From Shigella phage ESh23: DNA of 40,156 nucleotides. The stretch is from the sequence record ON528733; one strand, given 5' to 3'. Shown here one piece after another: positions 530-30,189 of the stretch. The notes beneath the pieces were generated by a model that did not search any database, was not told where the DNA came from, and saw only the letters and a program-made list of their open reading frames with translations. Both the position numbers and the translations under genes were made by a program. The number at the start of each line of letters is the position of its first letter. The first letter of the stretch is position 1.

Positions 530-2812
530 ATGGCTAGTAATATCGAATCAGCTTTAGCTAACCGGACTATGGGCCGTGGTCGCGCTCCGGGTAAAGCTAT
601 CAGTGTAGACTATCAGGCGGCGAACATTCAGGGGCAGACTGGTGACTCCGGTCTTGCCCGTGCGCTCACTAACTTCGTTGAGTCGGGCACAGGTCTGTAC
701 AAGCAGTTCCAAGAGAAGTCCAAGAACCTTGGTGACGAGCGGTCTAACGAGATTATCCGTAAGCTGACTCCCCAGCAAAGGCGTGAGGCTATCCAGAATG
801 GTACTCTGCTGTATCAGGACGACCCGTATGCAATGGAGGCACTGAAGGTCAAGACTGGTCGAAACGCTGCCTATGCGGTAGACGATGAGATTAACGTCAA
901 GATTCAGAACGGTGAGTTCCGCACCCGTCAGGAAATGGAGGAGTACCGCCACCAGCGACTTCAGGATGCCGCTAAGTCTTATGCTGACGAGGCTGGTATT
1001 AACCCCAATGATGAGCACTTCCAGCGTGGATTTAACGCAGACATCACGGACAGAAACGTAGCCATCTATGGGTCGTTCAATAAGTATTTCTCTAAGCAAT
1101 CCGAGAATACTGCTATGCTGAACACCCGTGTAGAGCTAAACTCGTTCCTGAATGATGGGGACCTGATGCGCTCACCTGAGGCAGGCAAGTCTTTCATGGC
1201 GTATCTTCGCGATGGGCTGACCACTGCTGCCATTCCGTCCGACCAACGGGCGACTGAAGTTATCTCTCAGACGGTACGGGACGCAATCCAGAAGTCTGGT
1301 GGGGCTAACTTCCTTCAGCAGATTCGACAAGAACGTATCACCCTTAACGGAGTGGACGCCACGGTCGAGGAGATTGTCGGACCAGAGGTATTCAACGCCG
1401 CTCTGATTGAGGCCCAAGGAACCGAGTACAAGCTGGTGGCTAAGTATCAGGAAGACCTAGCGTTGGGAGTTCAGTCTGCCCTGCTTCAGGATGACCCGTC
1501 TATTGGTCTGGCTCAAATCCAGAAACTCAAGGCTCAGAACAACCAGCTCCAGCCGGGTGAGGAGATGACACCACAACGTCAGATGCTCATCAATGCTGAG
1601 GCCAGCCTCTTAGAGACCGTGAAGCGCAAGTCCGCTGAGCAGGCCAAGGAGAACGTTAAGCTCATCCAGACGCAGAACAAGCAGTTGGTCATCGACCAAG
1701 TGTATCAGCGACGACTGGCTGGGGACAACGTGTCCACCAACTATGAGGACCTCCCGGTATCCGAGGCCACTGGTGAGTTCAAGCGTTCGGACATGAACAA
1801 CTACGCCATGGGCAAACTCCGGCAGATTGACCAGATGGATATACCTCAGGCTGCTAAGGATGCTCAGAAGGTGGCGCTGCTGCGGGCTGATACCAACAAT
1901 GGCCCGTTCCGTAACGCCTTCCAGACGCTGACTCAGGATGCTGCGGGTGAGTGGCAAGCTGCGGTAATCCGAGGTCAATACGACCCAGACAAGATGCAGC
2001 GCTTCGAGTCCCTGCGTAAGGTCTACACTCAGGACCCTTCCAGCTTCGCGGCCCTCTACCCTGAGCAGGCCCAATTGTTCACGACTTTCGAGCAGATGGA
2101 CAAGATGGGTCTGGACCCTCAGACTATGATTGACGCTGACAAACAGGCTGCAAGTCAGTCCCGTGAGATGCGCATTGAGTCTGACAAGGCGTGGCGGGAG
2201 CTGAAGAACGACTCGAAGAATAAGGACCTCTCGCGTCTCCCTACGAGTCTGGATGCAAGTGCTCGTAAGGTCTGGGACTCATGGTATTACCGCACAGGTA
2301 ACGCCGATGCAGCTACCCAGAACACTCAGAAGTGGCTGAACGAGAACACCGTGACTTTCAATGATGATGGTCAGGATGGTAAGTCCATCGGCATGGTGTC
2401 CAAACATCAACTTATGGTAGGGGATAACCCTGAGTCGTGGCAGGTTGGTCGAGACATTATAGACACAGCTCGCAAGCAACTCATCAAAACTAACCCTTGG
2501 GTCGTGAACTCTCAGCTCTCTGTAGTTGAGCAGAACGGCTCGGTCTTCCTGCAAGACGCCACTGGGACCATTCGTATTCGCTACGATAAGGAACTGGTGG
2601 GTAAACTGTACCGTGAACAACAGAAACAAGCCGAGGATAAAGCCTACGCTGAAGCTGAACGTAAAGCCAACACCCGCGCTCGCATCGTCGAGACTAAAGC
2701 GGCTGGCGATAAGCGTCGGGCCGAACGTGAAGGTAACATCCAGAAACGCGGTGGTCTGTACGGTGATGTCTCGCTGGAGGGTATCGCAAACACCTTAATC
2801 GGTAAGGAGTAA
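530..2812 (+). CDS. internal virion protein C (T7 gp15-like), 760 aa
   Basis: Size and position between gp14 and gp16; SD GGAGGA upstream of ATG; T7 gp15 is 747 aa. Confidence 0.85.
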   Translation: MASNIESALANRTMGRGRAPGKAISVDYQAANIQGQTGDSGLARALTNFVESGTGLYKQFQEKSKNLGDERSNEIIRKLTPQQRREAIQNGTLLYQDDPYAMEALKVKTGRNAAYAVDDEINVKIQNGEFRTRQEMEEYRHQRLQDAAKSYADEAGINPNDEHFQRGFNADITDRNVAIYGSFNKYFSKQSENTAMLNTRVELNSFLNDGDLMRSPEAGKSFMAYLRDGLTTAAIPSDQRATEVISQTVRDAIQKSGGANFLQQIRQERITLNGVDATVEEIVGPEVFNAALIEAQGTEYKLVAKYQEDLALGVQSALLQDDPSIGLAQIQKLKAQNNQLQPGEEMTPQRQMLINAEASLLETVKRKSAEQAKENVKLIQTQNKQLVIDQVYQRRLAGDNVSTNYEDLPVSEATGEFKRSDMNNYAMGKLRQIDQMDIPQAAKDAQKVALLRADTNNGPFRNAFQTLTQDAAGEWQAAVIRGQYDPDKMQRFESLRKVYTQDPSSFAALYPEQAQLFTTFEQMDKMGLDPQTMIDADKQAASQSREMRIESDKAWRELKNDSKNKDLSRLPTSLDASARKVWDSWYYRTGNADAATQNTQKWLNENTVTFNDDGQDGKSIGMVSKHQLMVGDNPESWQVGRDIIDTARKQLIKTNPWVVNSQLSVVEQNGSVFLQDATGTIRIRYDKELVGKLYREQQKQAEDKAYAEAERKANTRARIVETKAAGDKRRAEREGNIQKRGGLYGDVSLEGIANTLIGKE

Positions 2813-6772: not shown

Positions 6773-9280
<2,508 letters not shown>

Positions 9281-9326
9281 CCGATAACTTTGGGTCAAGG
9301 ACGACCCGTTTAACAACGGAGGTATT

Positions 9327-12618: not shown

Positions 12619-12781
12619 CTACTGTAGTCAAGGACTTTAGGTAACACCTTAAGAGAAGCTCACTTAGGGTCATCCTACTTACTGGTCTATCCTAGTGTCG
12701 CCTGACCTACGGTCCTTGACCTACAGTAGCTGGGTCCTACAGTAGGGACGATGAGTTTTGGACCAAAAGTTTGAGACCACA

Positions 12782-12960: not shown

Positions 12961-13000
12961 CGAGTCCCTATCTGTATCAGCCTAAGGTCCTCACCTCAAG

Positions 13001-13065
13001 TCTCACTACCTACAGTCAATCCACTGGTAACGGGGCTACCTACAGTCTCACTACCTACAGTCAAT
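13001..13065. repeat. two perfect 20-bp direct repeats TCTCACTACCTACAGTCAAT (13001..13020 and 13046..13065) within a CCTACAGT-rich array
   Basis: Read directly; CCTACAGT-type motif recurs at least six times between 12700 and 13090, analogous to the CCTAAAG repeats of the T7 left end. Confidence 0.8.
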
Positions 13066-13290
13066 AGACACCTTGTTGACCTACAGTTTATCAGAGTCCT
13101 AAGGTCTAGACTCACAGGTTATCACATCCGGTCCGTTTAGCAGTCAGAGACCATAGCTGACTAGGGTTATCGTTGTTGGTGTCTGCCAACTGGACTCTTA
13201 TTATCCATAGTCCTGACCTAAAGTCAATCATCTGTAGTCATCCTTATATAGTCACTGGACTACTGTATAAATTAACATGATAAATAGTTG

Positions 13291-13589: not shown

Positions 13590-13665
13590 TACAGGGCCTT
13601 GAGTCTACCGCGAGACGGGCTTGACTTGAGCGACTCAGGGTCCTGACTGATAGTCACTAACAACT
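13590..13665 (+). promoter_or_regulatory. structured leader element upstream of the first early gene (R0.3 position); shares the CCTGACTGAT-AGTCACT 3' motif with the elements at 14465 and 14905
   Basis: Position and partial match to the T7 R0.3 region (CTTTAACAATCTGG...); fold not verified. Confidence 0.3.
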
Positions 13666-13679
13666 GAGAGGATATAACT

Positions 13680-14186
13680 ATGGAACGTAACACTAACGCA
13701 TACTATGACCTGCTGGCTGCAACCGTTGAGCTGTTCAACGAGCGTATTCAGCAAGACGAAATAGCTGAAGGTGATGACTACAGCGATGCGCTGCATGAAG
13801 TCGTAGACGGTCAGGTTCCGCACTATTACAGCGAGATTTTCACGGTGATGGCTGCTGATGGTATTGACCACGAGTTCGAAGACTCTGGGCTGATGCCTGA
13901 TACCAAGGACGTAACGCGTATACTGCAAGCTCGCATCTATGAGGCACTGTATAACGATGTGTACAATAGCTCGGATGTAGTCTGGTTCGAGGCTGAAGAG
14001 AGCGACGAGGAGGACGAATACTGGGTGGTTGACGCTAAGACAGGTGCATTCATTGAGCAAGCTGTATCACTTGAGGTCGCTACTGCATGTGCCAAGGACC
14101 ACTATGCGATAGGTCGCCGCCTGAAAGTCGAAGACATCAACGACAACGTAGTGTTCGACCCTGCGGCTGCTGAGGACTGCGAGTGA
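13680..14186 (+). CDS. ocr: Ocr (T7 gp0.3-like anti-restriction DNA mimic) with ~50 aa C-terminal extension, 168 aa
   Basis: Core VPHYYSEIFTVMAADGIDHEFEDSGLMPDTKDVTRILQARIYE is near-identical to recalled T7 Ocr; acidic; first gene after the early promoters. Confidence 0.9.
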   Translation: MERNTNAYYDLLAATVELFNERIQQDEIAEGDDYSDALHEVVDGQVPHYYSEIFTVMAADGIDHEFEDSGLMPDTKDVTRILQARIYEALYNDVYNSSDVVWFEAEESDEEDEYWVVDAKTGAFIEQAVSLEVATACAKDHYAIGRRLKVEDINDNVVFDPAAAEDCE

Positions 14187-14335
14187 TGGTAACTTATGGT
14201 CTCTGCCAGCACCACATGGAGAACGCCCGGCTATCTCTGGCGACTCTGAAACACGACGCTATTATGCGTCACCTGAAAGCGGTCTACGAGGGCCGCAAGC
14301 GTATACACGACAGCTTACACTCTGAGGGCAAGTGA
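14186..14335 (+). CDS. small early ORF, 49 aa (T7 0.4-0.6 position)
   Basis: ATG overlaps Ocr stop (TGATG); weak SD; below the ORF-track length cutoff. Confidence 0.35.
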   Translation: MVTYGLCQHHMENARLSLATLKHDAIMRHLKAVYEGRKRIHDSLHSEGK

Positions 14336-14337
14336 AC

Positions 14338-14463
14338 ATGTACCAGATAGCTTATAGCAGTGAACAGGCCTTCTACGATGGTCTCGTTGAGCTGATGAAG
14401 CGCGGGGCCTGCTACACGGCTAACCACCATGCGCTAACCATAACGCTGACAGGCGGGTACTGA
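14338..14463 (+). CDS. small early ORF, 41 aa
   Basis: ATG 2 nt after the previous stop; weak SD. Confidence 0.3.
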   Translation: MYQIAYSSEQAFYDGLVELMKRGACYTANHHALTITLTGGY

Positions 14464-14464
14464 G

Positions 14465-14510
14465 TGTTAAACTACAGGTCATCTACATGGTGGCCTGAGT
14501 GATTACCACT
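14465..14510 (+). promoter_or_regulatory. conserved early-region element (ACTACAGGTCATC..CATGGTGGCCTGA.TGATT..CACTT), likely RNase III site
   Basis: Near-identical copy at 14905..14950, each directly upstream of an early gene RBS. Confidence 0.3.
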
Positions 14511-14534
14511 TGACAAATATAGAAGGAAAGAATA

Positions 14535-14882
14535 ATGACTGCTAAAACTCGCAATGTATTCTCGTTAGCATTTAAACTCAACGTTGTTGAATACTACACC
14601 TCTCTACCTGAGGGCGTTATGGATAGGGTGACGGAAACAGCCCAAAAGTTCGGGGTGGGGACGAGCTCGGTGAAGCGCTGGTTTACTCAGTATAGCCGTG
14701 GTGAGCTTGCCATGGAAAACGCTATTGCGGTAAGTCGCAGTCCATCTAAGGTAATAACAGGGGACACATACCACCTTGCTGGTAAGGACTTTAAGTCCAA
14801 AGAAGAGGCGATACGCTATGCAGTCGAGCTGGCTGGGGGTCTTACTGTAACCAAGATGACAACCATCTCGGTGGAGGTGTAG
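14535..14882 (+). CDS. small HTH DNA-binding protein with a transposase (IS3 OrfA-type) helix-turn-helix signature, 115 aa
   Basis: FSLAFKLNVVEYY...AQKFGVGTSSVKRWFTQY fits the FxxEFKxxxV...GVSxxxLxxWxKxY pattern of IS3-family HTH domains; good RBS AAGGAAAG. Confidence 0.75.
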   Translation: MTAKTRNVFSLAFKLNVVEYYTSLPEGVMDRVTETAQKFGVGTSSVKRWFTQYSRGELAMENAIAVSRSPSKVITGDTYHLAGKDFKSKEEAIRYAVELAGGLTVTKMTTISVEV

Positions 14883-14904
14883 GAACAAGCGATGTAGGTG
14901 AGTG

Positions 14905-14950
14905 CCAGACTACAGGTCATCCATGCTGGTGGCCTGACTGATTGTCACTT
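14905..14950 (+). promoter_or_regulatory. second copy of the conserved early-region element, upstream of the kinase gene
   Basis: Matches 14465..14510 copy. Confidence 0.3.
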
Positions 14951-14974
14951 AACCACAAGAAGGAAACACACGTA

Positions 14975-15709
14975 ATGAACGCACACGATAAAGTAATCAT
15001 GAATAACCTGATGTATCAGCTCCACGCTATCATCTGCGAGGAGTGCTATAAGATTGAGGACTCTAGCGCTGGCATAGCTGGTCAACCTCGCTGGGGAGCC
15101 TTTGAGATACTGGCGCGGGAACATGGTTACAAGCTGTTAGGCCTTGGACATTTCGCCGCTGCCTTTGAGCATGAGGACCTGCCGGGATATGCAATCAAGG
15201 TAGGCTTTAAGAAGGATGACTCAGGCGCTGCATATGCGGCCTTCTGCCGAGAGAACGAGGGTCTGGCTGGGCTTCCGGTCATCCATCTGGTCAAGCGCTT
15301 TAGCAGGGCATACATGGTCGCTATGGATAAGTACCGCTCACTGAATGACATTGGCGGTGACTACTGCCGGGATGGTGAGACCTACGAGCAGCGAGTCTTA
15401 AACGTGTCGTGGCGTGTAGTCAACGCGATAATAGACCATTGCGAGCAACCGTCTGAGGCCCTGAGCTGGTGGCTGGACCAAGACGCACGGGCTGAGTTTG
15501 GACACGTCGAGGCCCAGTATATCAAGGACCTTGCGCAGACCGCTAAGAAGATTAACAGTTTCTTCTACGGGCTGGCATCATTCGACACACACCGCGCTAA
15601 TGTGATGGTTGATAACAATGGGCGACTGATAATCACAGACCCAGTGTCTTGGACTCAGGCAGACCATCAAGACGAGCTGCAAGGCAGGCTGAACGCAATA
15701 GCTGAGTGA
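14975..15709 (+). CDS. serine/threonine protein kinase (T7 gp0.7-like kinase domain only), 244 aa
   Basis: Motifs LGxGHFxAA, IKVGFKKDDSGAAYAAFCR, FFYGLASFDTHRANVM, ITDPVS match recalled T7 gp0.7; ATG 14975 with RBS preferred over TTG 14942. Confidence 0.85.
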   Translation: MNAHDKVIMNNLMYQLHAIICEECYKIEDSSAGIAGQPRWGAFEILAREHGYKLLGLGHFAAAFEHEDLPGYAIKVGFKKDDSGAAYAAFCRENEGLAGLPVIHLVKRFSRAYMVAMDKYRSLNDIGGDYCRDGETYEQRVLNVSWRVVNAIIDHCEQPSEALSWWLDQDARAEFGHVEAQYIKDLAQTAKKINSFFYGLASFDTHRANVMVDNNGRLIITDPVSWTQADHQDELQGRLNAIAE

Positions 15710-15716
15710 TAGACGA

Positions 15717-15754
15717 GAGGCCACTACATCTAGTGGTCTCAAAGATTATTTCTC
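15717..15754 (+). terminator. stem-loop (10 bp stem GAGGCCACTA/TAGTGGTCTC, loop CATC) followed by AAAGATTATTTCTC; possible weak terminator or processing site
   Basis: Read directly; U-tract is not contiguous with the stem. Confidence 0.3.
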
Positions 15755-15774
15755 ACAACATATAGAGGTGAACT

Positions 15775-16384: not shown

Positions 16385-16391
16385 TTTGGAC

Positions 16392-16410
16392 TAAACTATC
16401 ACTAAAGGAC
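16392..16410 (+). promoter_or_regulatory. variant phage-type promoter upstream of the RNAP gene: TAAACTATCACTAAAGGAC
   Basis: Matches the consensus except A for T at -2 (T3-like CACTAAAGG). Confidence 0.45.
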
Positions 16411-16487
16411 TCAAGGTCGAAAGACTCTAAGTCAGGACTGAAGTGAAAGACTTTAGTGATAAGACAACAGTTATAAGGACTTTAAGT

Positions 16488-19169
16488 ATGAGCGTCATCT
16501 CAATTGACAAACACGACTTCTCTGATGTGTCGAATGCAATCGAACCTTTCAACGTACTGGCGGACCACTACGGGCAAGACCTCGCAGTCAAACAGCTCCA
16601 GCTAGAGCATGAGGCATACACTGAAGGTGAGCGACGTTTCATTAAGAACCTTGAGCGTCAGACTGAGCGCGGGGAACTGGCAGACAATCAGGTTGCTAAG
16701 CCACTGATGCAAACGCTGGTCCCAACCATCGCTAAGGCTGTGCGTGAGTGGCATGAAGGCCCGGACGGTAAGTCCTCGACCTCTCGCCCAAGCGTAGCGT
16801 TTACCATGCTGAGCACTGACGAGAAGGCTGTCAAAGACCGCTCTCTGCGCATCTCTCCAGAGTCCGCTGCGGTCATCATACTGAAGGTCATTCTCAGCAA
16901 GCTGGTCAAGCCTGAGGGCATCCCGATAACTCCTATGGCGTCCGCGATAGGTCGCACACTGGAAGATGAAATCCGCTTTGGTCGAATCCGTGAGCAGGAG
17001 CAGGAGCATTTCAAGAAGACCATAGCGGAGAACCTGAAGAAACGCGCTGGCGCAAGCTACAAGAAGGCCTACATGCAGGCAGTCGAGGCGTCTATGCTTG
17101 AGCAGGGACAACTGGCTGACGCGTGGGGGACTTGGAGTCCGACCGAGGCAGTTCATGTAGGCATAAAGATGCTAGAGCTGGTCATCCAGTCATCGCAACT
17201 GGTCGAGCTGAAGCGCTACGGTGCAGGCAATGCTGCGGTAGACGTCGAGATGGTTCACCTGTCTGACTTCTGGGTCAAGAAGATGGCTCAGCGTGGCTTC
17301 TCTCTGGCTGGAATTTCCCCAGTTTACCAGCCCTGCGTCGTGCCACCTAAGCCGTGGACCGGGGTGGTTGGCGGTGGGTACTGGGCTAAGGGTCGCAGGC
17401 CACTCCCTCTGATTCGCTTAGGGTCTAAGGCTGCGGTCCAGCGCTACGAAGACGTGTACATGCCTGAAGTGTATGAGGCAGTGAACATCATTCAGCAGAC
17501 TCCTTGGAAGGTAAACAAGAAGGTGCTGGAAGTGGTGAACATGGTCGAGAAGCTGAATAACACGCCTATCGCTGACATCCCTCAGATGGAGCCGCTGAAG
17601 CCTGAAGACTATGCGGGTGAGACCGAGGAGGAGCTTAAGGCTTGGAAGAAATCTGCGGCTGGCATCTATCGACGCGAGAAGGCCCGACAGTCTCGCCGTT
17701 TATCGCTGAGCTTCATCGTCTCACAGGCTAACAAGTTCTCTCAGTTCAAGGCCATATGGTTCCCGTACAACATGGACTGGCGAGGTCGTGTTTACGCAGT
17801 CCCGATGTTCAACCCTCAGGGCAACGATATGCAGAAGGGCCTGCTGACTCTGGCGGTAGGCAAGCCAATCGGTGCGGACGGCTTCAAATGGCTGAAGGTA
17901 CACGGTGCAAACTGCGCGGGTGTAGATAAAGTCACCTTTGAGGAGCGCATCAAGTGGGTTGAGGACAACCACGACAACATCCTAGCGACTGCTAAGAGTC
18001 CGATGGATAGCATTGACTGGTGGGGCCAGTTAGACTCTCCGTTCTGCTTCCTCGCGTTCTGCTTTGAGTATGCCGGGGTTATGCACCACGGGCTGAGCTA
18101 CTCCTGCTCTCTGCCTATCGCGTTCGATGGGTCCTGCTCTGGGATTCAGCACTTCAGCGCTATGCTCCGTGACCACGTTGGTGGACATGCGGTAAACCTG
18201 ACGCCTTCCGGTAAGGTCCAAGACATCTACCGCATTGTGTCCGACCGGGTGGAAGAACAGCTCAAGGAGCTGCTGGTCAACGGCAGTGACAACGAGGTGA
18301 AGACCTTCGAGGACAAGAAGACAGGCGAGATTACTGAACGTCTGGTCCTTGGGACCCGTGAGCTGGCCCGACAGTGGCTGACCTACGGGATGTCACGCTC
18401 GGTCACTAAACGCTCGGTAATGACTCTGGCCTATGGGTCGAAGGAATACGGGTTCGCGGACCAAGTGTTTGAGGATACCGTGATGCCAGCGATTGATAGT
18501 GGCAAGGGAGCAATGTTCACGGACCCAAGCCAAGCGTCTCGCTTCATGGCTAAGATGATATGGGACGCTGTGAGTGTGACCGTAGTGGCTGCGGTGGATG
18601 CAATGAAGTGGCTTCAGGGTGCGGCTAAACTGCTGGCTGCCGAGGTCAAGGACAAGAAGACCAAAGAGGTCCTTAAGCCTTGCCTTCCGGTTCACTGGGT
18701 AACACCTGATGGCTTCCCGGTATGGCAGGAATACCGCAAGAAAGACACAACGCGCCTGAATCTACTGTTCCTTGGGTCGTTCAACCTGCAACCGACAGTC
18801 AATAAGGGGTCGAAGAAAGAGCTGGACAAGCACAAGCAGGAGTCCGGTATCAGCCCTAACTTTGTACACTCACAGGATGGCAGTCACCTGAGGAAGACTG
18901 TGGTCCACACCCACCGCAAGTATGGCGTGATGTCCTTCGCGGTGATTCACGACAGCTTTGGGACCATACCAGCAGACGCTGAGTTCCTGTTCAAGGGAGT
19001 CCGTGAGACGATGGTCGAGACCTACCGCGACAACGATGTGCTGCAAGACTTCTACGAGCAGTTCGCGGACCAGCTTCACGAGAGCCAGCGCGACAAGTTG
19101 CCTGAGCTGCCTAAGCGCGGTAAACTGAACATCGAAGACATTCTGTTATCTGACTTTGCATTCGCCTGA
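16488..19169 (+). CDS. single-subunit DNA-directed RNA polymerase (T7 gp1-like), 893 aa
   Basis: Collinear with recalled T7 RNAP from N-terminus (DFSDxxxAxxPFNxLADHYG) to C-terminus (LHESQxDKxPxLPxxGxLNxxDILxSDFAFA); ATG 16488 preferred over GTG 16443. Confidence 0.97.
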   Translation: MSVISIDKHDFSDVSNAIEPFNVLADHYGQDLAVKQLQLEHEAYTEGERRFIKNLERQTERGELADNQVAKPLMQTLVPTIAKAVREWHEGPDGKSSTSRPSVAFTMLSTDEKAVKDRSLRISPESAAVIILKVILSKLVKPEGIPITPMASAIGRTLEDEIRFGRIREQEQEHFKKTIAENLKKRAGASYKKAYMQAVEASMLEQGQLADAWGTWSPTEAVHVGIKMLELVIQSSQLVELKRYGAGNAAVDVEMVHLSDFWVKKMAQRGFSLAGISPVYQPCVVPPKPWTGVVGGGYWAKGRRPLPLIRLGSKAAVQRYEDVYMPEVYEAVNIIQQTPWKVNKKVLEVVNMVEKLNNTPIADIPQMEPLKPEDYAGETEEELKAWKKSAAGIYRREKARQSRRLSLSFIVSQANKFSQFKAIWFPYNMDWRGRVYAVPMFNPQGNDMQKGLLTLAVGKPIGADGFKWLKVHGANCAGVDKVTFEERIKWVEDNHDNILATAKSPMDSIDWWGQLDSPFCFLAFCFEYAGVMHHGLSYSCSLPIAFDGSCSGIQHFSAMLRDHVGGHAVNLTPSGKVQDIYRIVSDRVEEQLKELLVNGSDNEVKTFEDKKTGEITERLVLGTRELARQWLTYGMSRSVTKRSVMTLAYGSKEYGFADQVFEDTVMPAIDSGKGAMFTDPSQASRFMAKMIWDAVSVTVVAAVDAMKWLQGAAKLLAAEVKDKKTKEVLKPCLPVHWVTPDGFPVWQEYRKKDTTRLNLLFLGSFNLQPTVNKGSKKELDKHKQESGISPNFVHSQDGSHLRKTVVHTHRKYGVMSFAVIHDSFGTIPADAEFLFKGVRETMVETYRDNDVLQDFYEQFADQLHESQRDKLPELPKRGKLNIEDILLSDFAFA

Positions 19170-20204: not shown

Positions 20205-20468
20205 ATGGGCCGACTTTATAGTGGCAACCTCAACGCTTTCAGAGCAGCGTGTAACAGGCTCTATCAGTTAGACTTCGCTGTTATATCTCAGGAGTTTCAA
20301 GACCTTGCGTCTCGCCAAGAGTGCATGAAACTCAGTGTCGAGGACCGGGCGGGTAACATATTCGCTCGTGAGTCCTTCGCACACTATGATGAAGACGTAA
20401 TGTACAACACTGCAACCGCCTTCCTTAACGGTCTCGCTGACCAACTCGACACATGGAGCAAAATATAA
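20205..20468 (+). CDS. inhibitor of host dGTPase (T7 gp1.2-like), 87 aa
   Basis: MGRLYSGNLNAFRAA...HYDEDV closely matches recalled T7 gp1.2 (MGRLYSGNLAAFKAA...). Confidence 0.85.
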   Translation: MGRLYSGNLNAFRAACNRLYQLDFAVISQEFQDLASRQECMKLSVEDRAGNIFARESFAHYDEDVMYNTATAFLNGLADQLDTWSKI

Positions 20469-21986: not shown

Positions 21987-22287
21987 AAATGAACAGCCTA
22001 TCTACACGGGAGGTTCTGCTGACTACTATCAGGTCCACATAAAGAGCACCACTACCCCCGGTCGACCTGAGTACATCGCTGAGTGCAACGACATCATCGA
22101 AGCTCTGGGTATGAACTTTGCGGAAGGCAATGCGTTCAAGGCAATATGGCGTCGAGCCGCCCAGCGGACCTTGGGTCTGCGTAAAGCTGGCGCTAAAGAT
22201 GATGGTCTTTACGATGCAGAGAAAGTCGAGTTCTTCGGTGCTCGTATGGTAGCTCAGAGTAAGGCTGGTAATCATGACTCCGAGTGA
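21979..22287 (+). CDS. hypothetical protein, 102 aa; possibly related to the gp1.7 nucleotide-kinase family (GGSADYYQ motif)
   Basis: Start overlaps upstream stop; GGSxxYYQ motif recalled from DUF3310-type phage proteins; assignment uncertain. Confidence 0.55.
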   Translation: MTKNEQPIYTGGSADYYQVHIKSTTTPGRPEYIAECNDIIEALGMNFAEGNAFKAIWRRAAQRTLGLRKAGAKDDGLYDAEKVEFFGARMVAQSKAGNHDSE

Positions 22288-24692: not shown

Positions 24693-26477
<1,785 letters not shown>

Positions 26478-26478
<1 letters not shown>

Positions 26479-27011
26479 TGAGAAACTTAATCAACGGTAA
26501 GACCCTGACCGAGGTGCAGCTTGAACTTGGCCCGAAGGAGGGACTTGAGGTCTTCACCTCCCGCTGCACTGGTCGGACTTTGGGTCGGGCACTACTGTTC
26601 ATATCTACAGCTATGGCCCAAGGGTCCATCGACATCGGGCCGCTACGCTCTAACTTGGGAGACCAAGAGATTGATAGCGTGAAGTATCAAATCACACAGC
26701 GTCTAGACCAGATGGGCCTCGTTGGGTTCAAGCTGGAAGGAGACGTTCTGTCCTATTATCCATTTGAGGAGTACCAAGATGTTAAAGAGGTTGTGCGAGA
26801 AGTTACAGTCCAAGTATCACCTTTCGCTGGCGAAGTGGTATCACCACGAAGCTACAGTGTTGAGCAACATCCTGAAGGACCAGCGGTTCCAGTCGGTAGC
26901 ATGGAACAAAGCTACCCAGAAGTGCGCGTATCATCTGGCGAGAGTCCTTTAGTAGAACCGATGGAGGTCATAGAGCCGTTGGTCCCAGACATGACTCCGC
27001 CTAAGGCTTAA
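26478..27011 (+). CDS. hypothetical protein, 177 aa (T7 gene 4.3-4.7 position), GTG start
   Basis: GGAGGA SD 7 nt upstream of GTG; ends at the promoter before the DNA polymerase gene. Confidence 0.6.
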
Positions 27012-27027
27012 CTATCACTGTAGGATA
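27008..27027 (+). promoter_or_regulatory. phage RNAP promoter (phi4.7 position): TTAACTATCACTGTAGGATA
   Basis: Consensus with G at -2. Confidence 0.6.
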
Positions 27028-27081: not shown

Positions 27082-29253
27082 ATGATTGACTTACAGAATA
27101 TCTGGGGTTCGGACATAGAGACCAACGGTCTTCTTGATACCGTCTCTCAGTTCCACTGTGGGGTCCTGATTAACGCCGAGTCGAATGAGACCCTGAAGTA
27201 CGGGGTAGCTCCGATGGTAGGTATCGTCGGTGGCTTCAAAGAGTATGTGCAGAAGGTCGAAGAGATTGCAGCCACACCGCATGGACTTCTGGTCTTCCAC
27301 AACGGGATTAACTATGACGTCCCGGCTATTGACATTCTGAAGCGTAAGTATTTTGGTAAACGTTTCAACTTCCCTAAACACAAGATGATTGACACGCTGG
27401 TCATGGGCCGCCTGATGTACCCGAACATTAAGTTCTCGGACATGGGCGCTGTGAAAGCTGGTCGTCTTCCGCCTAAGATGATGGGACGACAGTCTCTTGA
27501 AGCATGGGGCTACCGTCTCGGTGAGATGAAGGGTGAGTACAAGACCGATTACATTGCCAAGTGCAAGGCAGAAGGTATCGAATATAAGGCTGGTGACGAG
27601 TGGTTATTCCCAAGCCAAGAGATGCTGGACTATAACGTCCAAGACGTTGTGGTCACTCTGGCCCTGTTCAAGAAGTTCCTTACCGACAAGTACTACTTCG
27701 GGTCTCCTGAGGCCGGACTTGAGGCTGTGTACGCACTGCGTCTCGAACATGATGCTGCGTGGACATGCGCTAAGATGGAACGTAACGGCTACCCGATGAA
27801 CTCGGAGATAGTCGAGGGCTTGTATCGCGAGCTATCAGTCAAACGTGCGGAGCTTTTGGATAAGCTGCGGTCGACGTTCGGTAGTTGGTATTCACCTAAG
27901 GGTGGCAAAGAGTTCTTCAAGCACCCACGAACCGGGGCAGACATGCCGAAATACCCGCGAGTCATCTATCCGAAGGTGGGGGCAATCTTCAAGAAGCCGA
28001 AGAACAAAGCTCAGCGCTTAGGTCTGGAGCCTTGCGAACGAGACTCACGAGATACGATGGAAGGCGCACCGTTCACACCAATTACCTTCGTTGAGTTCAA
28101 TCCGGGCAGTGGCGACCACTTAGCTAAGGTTCTGATGGACCGGGGCTGGGAGCCTACTGAGTTCACGGATACAGGGAAGCCTAAGTGTGATGATGAAACT
28201 CTGGAGCACGTTAAGCTGGCAGACCCAGAAGCTCAGGCCTGCGTAGAGCTGGTCCGTGAGTATCTGGTGGTCCAGAAGCGCATTGGTCAGGCGGCTGAAG
28301 GTAAGAACGCATGGCTTCGACTTGTAGGTCCTGACGGAAGGATGCACGGGTCGATTAACCCCTGTGGTGCTGTAACCGGACGTGCGACTCACAGTTCACC
28401 GAACATGGCTCAGGTCCCGGCTAACGGTGCTCCTTGGGGTGAAATCTGCCGAAGTGCTTTCGGTGCTCAGTGGAACAAGAACAATGGCAAGGACGAACCG
28501 TGGATTCAGGTTGGCGTTGATGCCTCAGGCCTTGAACTCCGCTGTCTGGGGAACCGTGCGTCCCCGTTCGATGGTGGAGAATATGCGAAGACTGTGGTAG
28601 AGGGTGACATCCACTGGGCTAATGCGGTCAACGCCGGGTTAGCGCCTAACGTCCAACGCGACAAGTCTAACCACGACCACGATGCTTTCCGTAACAACGC
28701 CAAGACGTTCATCTATGCGTTCCTGTATGGTGCAGGGGCCGCGAAGATTGGACTGATAGTAGGAGGCGGCAAGAAGGAAGGCTCAGCCCTGATGAAGAAA
28801 TTCATTGAGGGTACACCAGCTATCAAGGACCTGCGAGAGGCTGTTCAGAACACGCTCATCTCTGAGTCCAAGTGGGTAGACGGTGAGAACATCGTGAAGT
28901 GGAAACGCCGCTGGCTTAAAGGTCTGGACGGTAGACGTATCCACATCCGGTCTCCACACTCAGCACTTAACGCCTTACTTCAGGGCGATGGTGCGGTAGT
29001 ATGTAAGCACTGGATTGTCGAGACTGAACGTATGCTAGAAGAGGCCGGGTATGTCCACGGCTGGGAGGGAGACTTTGCGTACATGGCTTGGGTCCACGAC
29101 GAATTGCAGATTGCGTGTCGTACTCAGGAGATTGCCGAAGAAGTCGTCAAGATTGCTCAACTTGCTATGCGTAAGGTGGGTGAGTTCTATAACTTTAAAT
29201 GTGTCCTTGATACCGAAGGTAAGATTGGACCAACGTGGAAGGAGTGTCACTAA
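27082..29253 (+). CDS. DNA polymerase (T7 gp5-like, family A) with 3'-5' exonuclease and thioredoxin-binding region, 723 aa
   Basis: DIETNGLL, FHNGxNYDVPA (exo motifs); TFGSWYSPKGG...KYPRV (TBD region); RDNAKTFIYAFLYGAG (motif B), YMAWVHDELQ (motif C). Confidence 0.97.
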   Translation: MIDLQNIWGSDIETNGLLDTVSQFHCGVLINAESNETLKYGVAPMVGIVGGFKEYVQKVEEIAATPHGLLVFHNGINYDVPAIDILKRKYFGKRFNFPKHKMIDTLVMGRLMYPNIKFSDMGAVKAGRLPPKMMGRQSLEAWGYRLGEMKGEYKTDYIAKCKAEGIEYKAGDEWLFPSQEMLDYNVQDVVVTLALFKKFLTDKYYFGSPEAGLEAVYALRLEHDAAWTCAKMERNGYPMNSEIVEGLYRELSVKRAELLDKLRSTFGSWYSPKGGKEFFKHPRTGADMPKYPRVIYPKVGAIFKKPKNKAQRLGLEPCERDSRDTMEGAPFTPITFVEFNPGSGDHLAKVLMDRGWEPTEFTDTGKPKCDDETLEHVKLADPEAQACVELVREYLVVQKRIGQAAEGKNAWLRLVGPDGRMHGSINPCGAVTGRATHSSPNMAQVPANGAPWGEICRSAFGAQWNKNNGKDEPWIQVGVDASGLELRCLGNRASPFDGGEYAKTVVEGDIHWANAVNAGLAPNVQRDKSNHDHDAFRNNAKTFIYAFLYGAGAAKIGLIVGGGKKEGSALMKKFIEGTPAIKDLREAVQNTLISESKWVDGENIVKWKRRWLKGLDGRRIHIRSPHSALNALLQGDGAVVCKHWIVETERMLEEAGYVHGWEGDFAYMAWVHDELQIACRTQEIAEEVVKIAQLAMRKVGEFYNFKCVLDTEGKIGPTWKECH

Positions 29254-29537
29254 TGGCTATTACTAAACGTATTCGTGTGAGTTTTGACCTGAGGATGGTT
29301 GTTAGCTCAAAGGAAGAAGAGACCATGTGTTGTCAGCTCGCTGAGATGACTAAAGCCTACGCCGAGGGTGAGAAGCTGGATGGACTTCAGTTGGCTCTGG
29401 TCAAAACAGCAATCGAGTCAGGTCCTGAGTCTGCCCTTGAAATTGCCATCAAGAAGACCATCAAGGAGGAGCTGGTAGACGCCTTTGGTGATGACCAGTT
29501 CGGAGTATCCAACCTGCGATTCGAGGTCAAGCAATGA
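29253..29537 (+). CDS. hypothetical protein, 94 aa, possibly T7 gp5.5-like
   Basis: ATG overlaps gp5 stop; AAGGAG SD; N-terminus MAITKRIRVSFD resembles my recollection of gp5.5; uncertain. Confidence 0.55.
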   Translation: MAITKRIRVSFDLRMVVSSKEEETMCCQLAEMTKAYAEGEKLDGLQLALVKTAIESGPESALEIAIKKTIKEELVDAFGDDQFGVSNLRFEVKQ

Positions 29538-29743: not shown

Positions 29744-30189
29744 AGATACCTGAAAGTCTGAAAGAGCTGGTCCTTGAAATGGGTGAGTGCGAGAAGGAGC
29801 ACCGCAAGTACGCGGAGTTCTACGCATCTTGGTCGTACACCCTGTCAGAGAAGGACGTTGAGAACTACGCCGAGTCTCCTTCTGAGGCTTATGAATGGCG
29901 TCCGTTCATCGGCCTGACCATCGTAGCCAGCGGTATGTGGAATGACAGCTATGGCTCAGAGGTAAATGATTGGGGAGTGTATCGCCCGGTTGAGAAGGAG
30001 ACCGAAATTTCTTCAAGCTTCTGGAGCCTAATGTCCCACCTCAACTCAGAGGACAACGACATGGCCCATGAGTTCGCCCACAAATGGCTGAAGCCTGAGG
30101 TGACTCTAGAGCGTATTGAGGAGCCGAAAGTTTCCTTGATGCCAGCTACAGTTGCTATGGCTACAGGAGGTCTGGACGATGGGTTCTGA
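29740..30189 (+). CDS. acidic hypothetical protein, 149 aa, at the position of T7 gene 5.9
   Basis: ATG overlaps gp5.7 stop; Glu/Asp-rich; not similar to recalled gp5.9. Confidence 0.6.
   Translation: MKIPESLKELVLEMGECEKEHRKYAEFYASWSYTLSEKDVENYAESPSEAYEWRPFIGLTIVASGMWNDSYGSEVNDWGVYRPVEKETEISSSFWSLMSHLNSEDNDMAHEFAHKWLKPEVTLERIEEPKVSLMPATVAMATGGLDDGF

Follow-up and report, generated by a model that had tools for sequence, protein, structure and literature searches.

The predicted N-terminal domain of the 115-aa phage protein described here shares a three-helix, homeodomain-like HTH with IS3 OrfA (HTH_Tnp_1, PF01527, COG2963), IS66 TnpA, IS630, IS481, and Tc3. Compared with IS3 OrfA, however, the gene lacks a DDE partner ORF, a site of programmed frameshifting and inverted repeats at its ends, its product carries a predicted beta-beta-alpha orphan domain after the HTH instead of a coiled coil, and the family has been found only in lytic T7-like phages and never in the bacterial chromosomes and plasmids searched. 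A further likeness exists to Brinker (PF09607; PDB 2glo) and to the N-terminal domain of CENP-B (PDB 1hlv), which are eukaryotic transcription and centromere proteins. This likeness is one of fold class and not of membership, the 115-aa protein falling 0.3 bits under the Pfam cut-off for the Brinker domain.

The 115-aa protein resembles the Aca (anti-CRISPR-associated) repressors in its small size, in its HTH, and in being encoded alongside counter-defence genes in an operon that is switched on as infection begins. It differs in having no sequence relationship to any known Aca family and no operator that could be found, and its gene is dispensable in near-identical phages with the same early promoter region. 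The T7 proteins gp5.7, gp0.7, and gp2 represent small proteins of the T7 group that act on the switch from host to phage transcription, and gp5.7, a winged-HTH repressor of host-RNAP promoters (PMC5569994), offers a precedent for a small DNA-binding protein at this stage. It has no homology to the 115-aa protein, however, and is a class II product consisting of a winged HTH alone. For the C-terminal domain the only likeness is to DUF2188 (PF09954), a family of unknown function, with which it has the short helix motif F-x-[ST]-K-x-E-A-I-x-x-A in common over about 20 residues and at a marginal score only (E at least 0.028, about 13 bits against 22).

Set beside these systems, the 115-aa protein is best described as a domesticated HTH of predicted transposase type, combined with an orphan domain and encoded among the early genes of a lytic phage. 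Its coding status, domain architecture, HTH fold class, cassette structure and distribution, and its lack of IS features, were established in the present analysis.

Coding status and distribution of the early gene

The window, i.e., the whole stretch of 40,156 nucleotides of Shigella phage ESh23 (ON528733) that was analyzed, is a circularly permuted T7-type phage genome whose nearest GenBank records belong to Kayfunavirus (e.g., Shigella phage SFPH2 and Cronobacter phage GW1). A preliminary description, made without database searches, had placed the gene in the early anti-host region of a T7-like phage, and the identification of Ocr and a kinase as neighbors, both at the window locus and in relatives, agrees with this. 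Its position between Ocr and the kinase had also been given correctly, but two small ORFs separate the gene from Ocr (Table 1). The N-terminus of the 50-aa ORF is also found on P0028, a protein with a precomputed match to Phage_T7_GP04 (PF26807).

Table 1. Features of the 115-aa gene and of the surrounding early region (coordinates are those of the window, except in the last two rows).
Feature	Coordinates	Strand	Basis or remark
Ocr	13680-14186		Pfam ocr, 7.6e-33
50-aa ORF (phrog_5058)	14183-14335		between Ocr and 115-aa gene
43-aa ORF	14332-14463		between Ocr and 115-aa gene
Upstream RNase III-type hairpin, putative (GAGTG...stem-loop...CCTGAGTGATTACCACTT)	14461-14514	+	fold, direct repeat, covariation
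Shine-Dalgarno GAAGGA	14522-14527	+	7 nt 5' of ATG; direct sequence reading
CDS of 115-aa two-domain protein	14535-14882	+	ATG start, stop codon included; ORF list
N-terminal domain, residues 1-55 (basic, three-helix, homeodomain-like HTH of predicted transposase type)	14535-14699	+
Linker motif G56-x-L58-x3-N62-A63-x6-P70 (GELAMENAIAVSRSP)	14700-14744	+	invariance among members
C-terminal orphan domain, residues 71-115	14745-14879	+	AF2 model 2, pN/pS, conservation
Downstream hairpin copy, right cassette boundary, 5' of kinase RBS	14899-14953	+	repeat; SAKp10309 comparison
244-aa kinase	14975-15709		phrog_15752, 2e-113
Two small ORFs			between kinase and RNA polymerase
RNA polymerase	16443-19169
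Four related hairpins of early operon, putative RNase III type	13600-13679, 14461-14514, 14899-14953, 15703-15760
C-domain fusion, IMEP24 (L007)	1275-1835		with genome sequence
C-domain fusion, Dev2 (L016)	759-1076		with genome sequence

The 115-aa protein contains the motif FSLAFKLNVVEYY...AQKFGVGTSSVKRWFTQY on which the HTH assignment of the preliminary description had been based, and its gene does have a ribosome binding site of its own (GAAGGA), as stated there. Using tblastn, homologs of the gene were identified in 25 phage records, with a near-full-length match in 18, and protein identity was 92–99% in 15 Kayfunavirus-type records and 39–55% in other Autographiviridae. The family comprises about 36 clusters (90% identity) among 5.8 billion proteins. 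When eight near-full-length alleles were compared, pS was 0.10 and pN 0.03 for codons 1–55 (pN/pS 0.30), and 0.25 and 0.03, respectively, for codons 56–115 (pN/pS 0.12). Given that synonymous differences greatly outnumber non-synonymous ones and that the ORF occurs in 25 phage records, it is more than a chance ORF. It is a genuine gene with both halves under purifying selection.

The search for homologs in the early regions of other T7-like phages was successful, with all contexts examined being early Autographiviridae and every member with a readable context sitting in the early region. Carriers were found in Kayfunavirus, Przondovirus, Foetvirus, and Phimunavirus and in metagenomic T3/T7-like contigs, with Ocr or SAM lyase (SAMase), gp0.4, the kinase or RNA polymerase as neighbor of the family gene, which is sometimes the first gene, before the anti-restriction gene. 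They make up only about 7–10% of the 258 phage records matching the early region, and near-identical 115-aa proteins were found by tblastn in phages of Escherichia, Shigella, Cronobacter, and Citrobacter. This is a conserved yet rare early gene of T7-like phages, and one that has already been deposited many times as "hypothetical protein." No match for the window protein was obtained in the PADLOC library of defence systems, and a full-text literature search found no paper characterizing the family. JSS1_004 (PMC12345140) was rejected as a member, being in fact a gp0.7 kinase, and the accessory-gene screen of Silas et al. (10.1101/2023.04.06.535777) was considered and set aside.

A number of other features of the region were recorded. 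The early kinase of the window, at only 244 aa, appears to have a kinase domain but to lack the shut-off domain that T7 gp0.7 and JSS1_004 are described as having at their C-terminus; the kinases beside divergent family members have 343–408 aa. Ocr has 168 aa, with the Pfam ocr model spanning residues 7–98 only and leaving a C-terminal extension of about 70 aa outside it. Just 5' of the RNA polymerase gene (16388–16410) lies a variant of the phage promoter, AACTATCACTAAAGGA against the consensus AACTATCACTATAGGGA, about 14 copies of consensus type being found in other parts of the genome. An exact 14-nt repeat, TAAGGACTTTAAGT, is found within the 115-aa gene (14783–14796) and at the start of the RNA polymerase gene (16474–16487), with an 86% copy at 12629–12642; it is possibly due to chance. 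The non-coding left end, 5' of the early promoters (12990–13230), contains four direct repeats of ACCTACAGTCAATC and a 28-nt pair, a cluster that recalls the left-end repeats of T7. Two records showing about 91% identity to the enterobacterial early region, OR786095.1 ("Staphylococcus phage MBBL139") and PQ520054.1 ("Enterococcus phage IME_EF3"), have host labels that look wrong, unless the samples were contaminated.

Domain architecture of the protein

An HTH of transposase type (IS3 OrfA/Brinker/CENP-B-like) had been proposed for the N-terminus, with a HMMER search as the means of checking it. The proposal was borne out at the level of the family and of the fold, by homologs and by structure prediction, but not for the window protein alone, which stayed below every Pfam gathering score. 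It scored 23.1 bits against BrkDBD (PF09607; gathering score 23.4) and 15.6 bits against HTH_Tnp_1 (PF01527; E 0.019; gathering score 24.1 bits), and its E-values for HTH_Tnp_ISL3, HTH_23, HTH_28, and HTH_Tnp_1 ranged from 0.005 to 0.02, all under the curated cut-off. HTH_Tnp_1 was nevertheless matched by 22 of the 26 close homologs at E < 0.1 (best 3.6e-6), and its gathering score was passed by VLCpiA3d (24.3), Phoria (28.3), JJY1 (32.6), P0039 (40.4), and P0042 (25.0). Divergent members of the family exceeded the cut-off for HTH_Tnp_1 or HTH_23, and the NCBIfam matches of the family were confined to the HTH segments of IS3, IS66-TnpA, IS630, and IS481 models. Taken together, these matches indicate that the HTH signal is not a product of chance.

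In two AlphaFold2 models the N-terminal domain, which has a pI of 9.9, is predicted to form helices at residues 11–23, 31–39, and 43–54 (pLDDT about 76–91). Structure comparison showed that the modeled domain resembles the DNA-binding domains of Brinker, CENP-B, and IS transposases, with Foldseek giving a probability of 0.98 for Brinker and also returning homeodomains and TnpE. Five residues that are typical of DNA-binding members in the arm and the recognition helix (R6, K14, R48, W49, and Q52) are kept. From these profile matches and models, we assign the domain to the transposase-type HTH at family and fold level. Automatic labels given to proteins of the family include "Transposase" in UniProt (SFPH2 and Phoria), "SiR5 protein" in nr and, in one record, "F-box domain-containing protein."

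The suggestion that the protein is a standalone DNA-binding domain was not upheld, as half of it is a second, C-terminal domain, which is conserved far better and for which no relatives could be detected. The linker positions G56, L58, N62, A63, and P70 are invariant even in members just 31–45% identical overall, and W49, Y79, F86, and A96 are likewise invariant in all members. The C-terminal half is predicted to contain a short helix (60–66), a beta hairpin (79–86), a helix (89–99) and an amphipathic C-terminal stretch, with a pLDDT of 71–80 for the C-terminal domain in AF2 model 2, which is of moderate confidence and assigns no secondary structure to the last 16 residues. Residues 56–115 are 76–86% identical across four types of N-terminal domain which are themselves only 28–50% identical to each other, and in the most distant members the C-terminal domain is 40–60% identical compared with 17–37% for the N-terminal domain. 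On these comparisons it is the C-terminal domain, and not the HTH, that is the signature of the family.

An exhaustive phmmer search of 1.84 billion representatives with the C-terminal 60 residues returned only about ten small phage proteins as credible matches; matches to large repeat proteins (BNR, Por-secretion, and similar, in several short stretches) were dismissed as spurious when scanned against Pfam. In a profile search of 5.8 billion proteins the domain was confined to the same phage family. In Pfam and the PDB nothing was found for it beyond the marginal DUF2188 match, and LysM, NDUS4, and DUF2188 were all rejected as being far under threshold. Sequence searches of the PDB, whether with the protein or with profiles of the family and of the C-domain, gave only chance or weak HTH matches, those to repebodies reflecting a short LRR-like motif added up over repeats.

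Natural in-frame deletions have produced fusions which keep the C-terminal domain without the HTH (IMEP24, Dev2, P0028, P0006, and P0029), the domain being joined to Ocr, to a SAM-lyase remnant, or to gp0.4 or the 43-aa ORF, or being left alone. The IMEP24 and Dev2 fusions differ from the nearest full-length genes by just 1–2 synonymous changes, which marks them as recent deletions, and they are therefore uninformative as to whether the domain can work alone. Their use as proof of a self-sufficient C-terminal domain was set aside for this reason.

Insertion-sequence features, flanking hairpins and the cassette

The claim that no DDE catalytic ORF accompanies the gene was confirmed: the neighbors are Ocr, the two small ORFs, the kinase and RNA polymerase, every ORF of at least 150 aa in the window could be assigned, leaving no room for a DDE transposase, and the genome of Klebsiella phage SAKp10309, which is fully annotated and of standard T7 type, is colinear with the window. 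The gene contains no A6G/A7 slippery site as a signal for programmed frameshifting. Inverted repeats bracketing it were also absent, as had been reported, with two direct copies of a hairpin forming the flanks instead. Following the HTH there is no visible heptad pattern of leucines as expected for a coiled coil or leucine zipper, the model showing a beta hairpin and a helix. Neither blastn against 5,426 complete E. coli genomes nor tblastn against 72,556 plasmids detected the gene, and a search of 185,579 species genomes gave only one marginal match of 29 residues, in an unrelated 87-aa ORF. The 115-aa protein is neither a transposase nor part of an insertion sequence, and the full IS with a nearby transposase ORF of which it might have been a remnant was not found.

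A conserved processing element had been noted upstream of the gene. It corresponds to a conserved RNA hairpin, repeated downstream of the gene (Table 1), and its cleavage by RNase III is suggested by the biology of T7, the early mRNA of which is processed at RNase III sites between genes. The two flanking copies are direct repeats of about 55 nt each, 85–87% identical and 438–439 nt apart; the upstream one has a folding energy of -21 kcal/mol (z = -2.7), and the other copy a z of -0.5. In all, the hairpin occurs four times between the early genes, with the more diverged copies lying before Ocr and after the kinase. Comparison across nine copies showed U-G wobble pairs in the upper stem and three pairs with compensatory changes, which indicates that the hairpins are RNA structures. 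They have no T-run and so are not intrinsic terminators. By analogy with T7, the flanking hairpins would be RNase III processing sites. No Rfam family was matched between 12300 and 16600. The GenBank record of ASO2B calls the equivalent hairpins rho-independent terminators despite the lack of a T-run.

Phage SAKp10309 is a non-carrier that is about 90% identical to the window over the whole early region, with one hairpin and no 115-aa gene. In a whole-genome comparison of the two, the only indel between 9286 and 20210 was 14533–14898, and the gene is thus a presence/absence cassette of 366 nt, made up of the gene and one hairpin copy. As the boundaries of the indel coincide with the duplicated hairpins, ordinary homologous recombination explains its gain or loss. 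The other segments of the window without a counterpart in SAKp10309 (7117–9285, 20211–20465, 21987–22279, 26400–27025, 29250–29516, and 29744–30187) correspond to the tail-fibre region and to a number of small slots for accessory genes, which are further variable cassettes of this genome.

Candidate roles of the protein

We read the 115-aa protein as an accessory protein that binds DNA early in infection and serves host takeover or counter-defence, and would put the probability of this at roughly 0.55. The takeover or counter-defence role is one that we infer from the placement of the gene among counter-defence genes, which is an association only. No evidence emerged for a decoy, which the preliminary description had proposed as an alternative to a regulator acting on host or defence-system DNA. 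As an accessory class I (early) product, the protein would be translated within minutes of infection from a transcript that host RNA polymerase makes, and the flanking hairpins would probably free its gene as a separate message. The N-terminal domain would most likely bind double-stranded DNA through helix 3 and the N-terminal arm, with an HTH of the kind that transposases use on their own ends (IS3 OrfA, IS66 TnpA, and Tc3, with Brinker and CENP-B as derived forms). The C-terminal domain may most likely serve for self-association or for contacting a partner that is conserved either among Enterobacterales or among these phages, although for this domain the model allows only a guess. Gain and loss of the gene with one hairpin copy would proceed by recombination between the repeated hairpins.

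The target of the HTH would be host DNA, or DNA features common to these phages, and not a private operator in the phage's own early region. Given that the cassette is present or absent without any change in the early promoters and that near-identical proteins occur in the phages of four host genera, a host target or a common feature is the more likely. A genome-wide search for repeated 12-mers as candidate binding sites found only the phage promoters, the left-end repeats and a few short sequences recurrent within genes, none of which qualifies as such a site, and inverted repeats around the gene were only RNA hairpins or pairs at chance level. There are two points against the DNA-binding reading: the fast evolution of the HTH half fits badly with a single conserved host site, and HTH folds may also serve for protein contacts.

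One alternative is that of an Aca-like autorepressor, which would bind an operator in its own early promoter region and lower transcription of the early anti-defence operon (Ocr and kinase). Such a role would suit a small HTH protein that lies in the same early unit as counter-defence genes (Ocr or SAMase, and kinase) at all examined loci, and the pairing of a variable HTH with a constant second domain recalls how phage repressors swap specificity. The closest non-carrier, however, keeps the early promoter region (about 90% identity, with no other indel), so that no operator was inherited together with the gene, and neither a DNA palindrome nor a carrier-specific repeat was seen in the inverted-repeat and 12-mer searches. 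The inverted repeats that do lie beside the gene have U-G pairs and covariation, and would act as RNA. T7-type phages, moreover, already stop early transcription by means of gp2 and gp0.7. On balance we regard autorepression as unlikely.

Many of the early proteins of T7 are protein inhibitors, and the 115-aa protein could likewise be an adaptor or inhibitor that does not act on DNA but binds RNA or a host protein (e.g., RNA polymerase or a defence sensor), with the C-terminal domain as effector and the HTH-like domain as a second contact surface. It is the C-terminal domain that is the conserved half while the HTH evolves fast, and the natural fusions retain the former without the latter. These fusions are silent on function, however, being recent deletions, and the N-terminal domain has remained basic and has kept the five residues typical of DNA binders listed above, which makes an adaptor that leaves DNA aside doubtful.

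The three other alternatives were largely contradicted by the tests conducted here. An antitoxin-like neutralizer, in which a C-terminal domain of the DUF2188 or HicB type would sequester a host toxin or abortive-infection effector and the HTH would be the usual DNA-binding partner of an antitoxin, is very unlikely. Phage antitoxin mimics do exist, such as Dmd of T4, and several members of the family gave marginal DUF2188 matches (E 0.028–0.09) on the helix F-x-[ST]-K-[DE]-E-A-I. The likeness to HicB is presumed by us, however; the DUF2188 score is 13 bits against a gathering score of 22, no HicB or antitoxin family was detected, and the PDB profile search was empty.

Highly improbable is a selfish mobile cassette, in which a small site-specific nuclease or homing factor, targeted by the HTH and with a beta-beta-alpha module for catalysis, would propagate its own gene from one T7-like genome to another. 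The patchy distribution, with sharp boundaries of presence and absence, and the predicted beta hairpin and helix, which have the shape of a His-Me finger, are what could be expected of it, and T7-like phages often carry homing endonucleases. The candidate catalytic residues H80 and D77 vary, however, with no His, Asp, or Glu being invariant and the invariant columns looking structural, and the nuclease reading of the module was rejected on this basis. In addition, no nuclease family was matched in Pfam, PHROGs, NCBIfam, or the PDB, and the duplicated hairpins at the edges of the indel make homologous recombination sufficient.

A decaying IS remnant, i.e., an orphan OrfA useless to the phage, has the IS3 OrfA/COG2963 type of HTH and the UniProt labels on its side, but can hardly be credited in view of the purifying selection on both halves, the architecture kept across distant Autographiviridae at 31–45% identity, the absence of a DDE ORF, a frameshift site, inverted repeats and copies in the E. 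coli genomes and plasmids searched, and a C-terminal domain which, in the AF2 model, is not the coiled coil of IS3 OrfA.

To return to our main reading, proteins that disarm the host (Ocr, SAM lyase, gp0.7 kinase, and gp0.4) abound in the early regions of T7-like phages, and uncharacterized accessory genes found there are a promising source of new functions in counter-defence or takeover. The 115-aa family is also tractable, as the protein is small and natural carriers and non-carriers differ by a clean indel of 366 nt. For the safety screening of phages for therapy, the automatic UniProt label of "Transposase" is misleading, since these phages carry no transposable element. While nothing in the evidence would surprise a specialist, the protein represents a tidy, testable candidate of moderate interest, with the unusual pattern of an orphan domain that has hardly changed attached to a putative DNA-binding half that changes fast. 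A defined host target for the constant domain would mean a new mechanism; a role as a minor regulator would make the result ordinary. We suggest, very tentatively, that the C-terminal 60 residues might act as an effector of a new kind, exclusive to phages, against a conserved host factor or defence system, which would be disabled as infection begins, and that an interchangeable HTH, diversifying in an arms race, would deliver it to DNA. Were this effector reading true, T7-like phages would have in the 115-aa proteins a new family of factors that serve counter-defence or host takeover while tethered to DNA.
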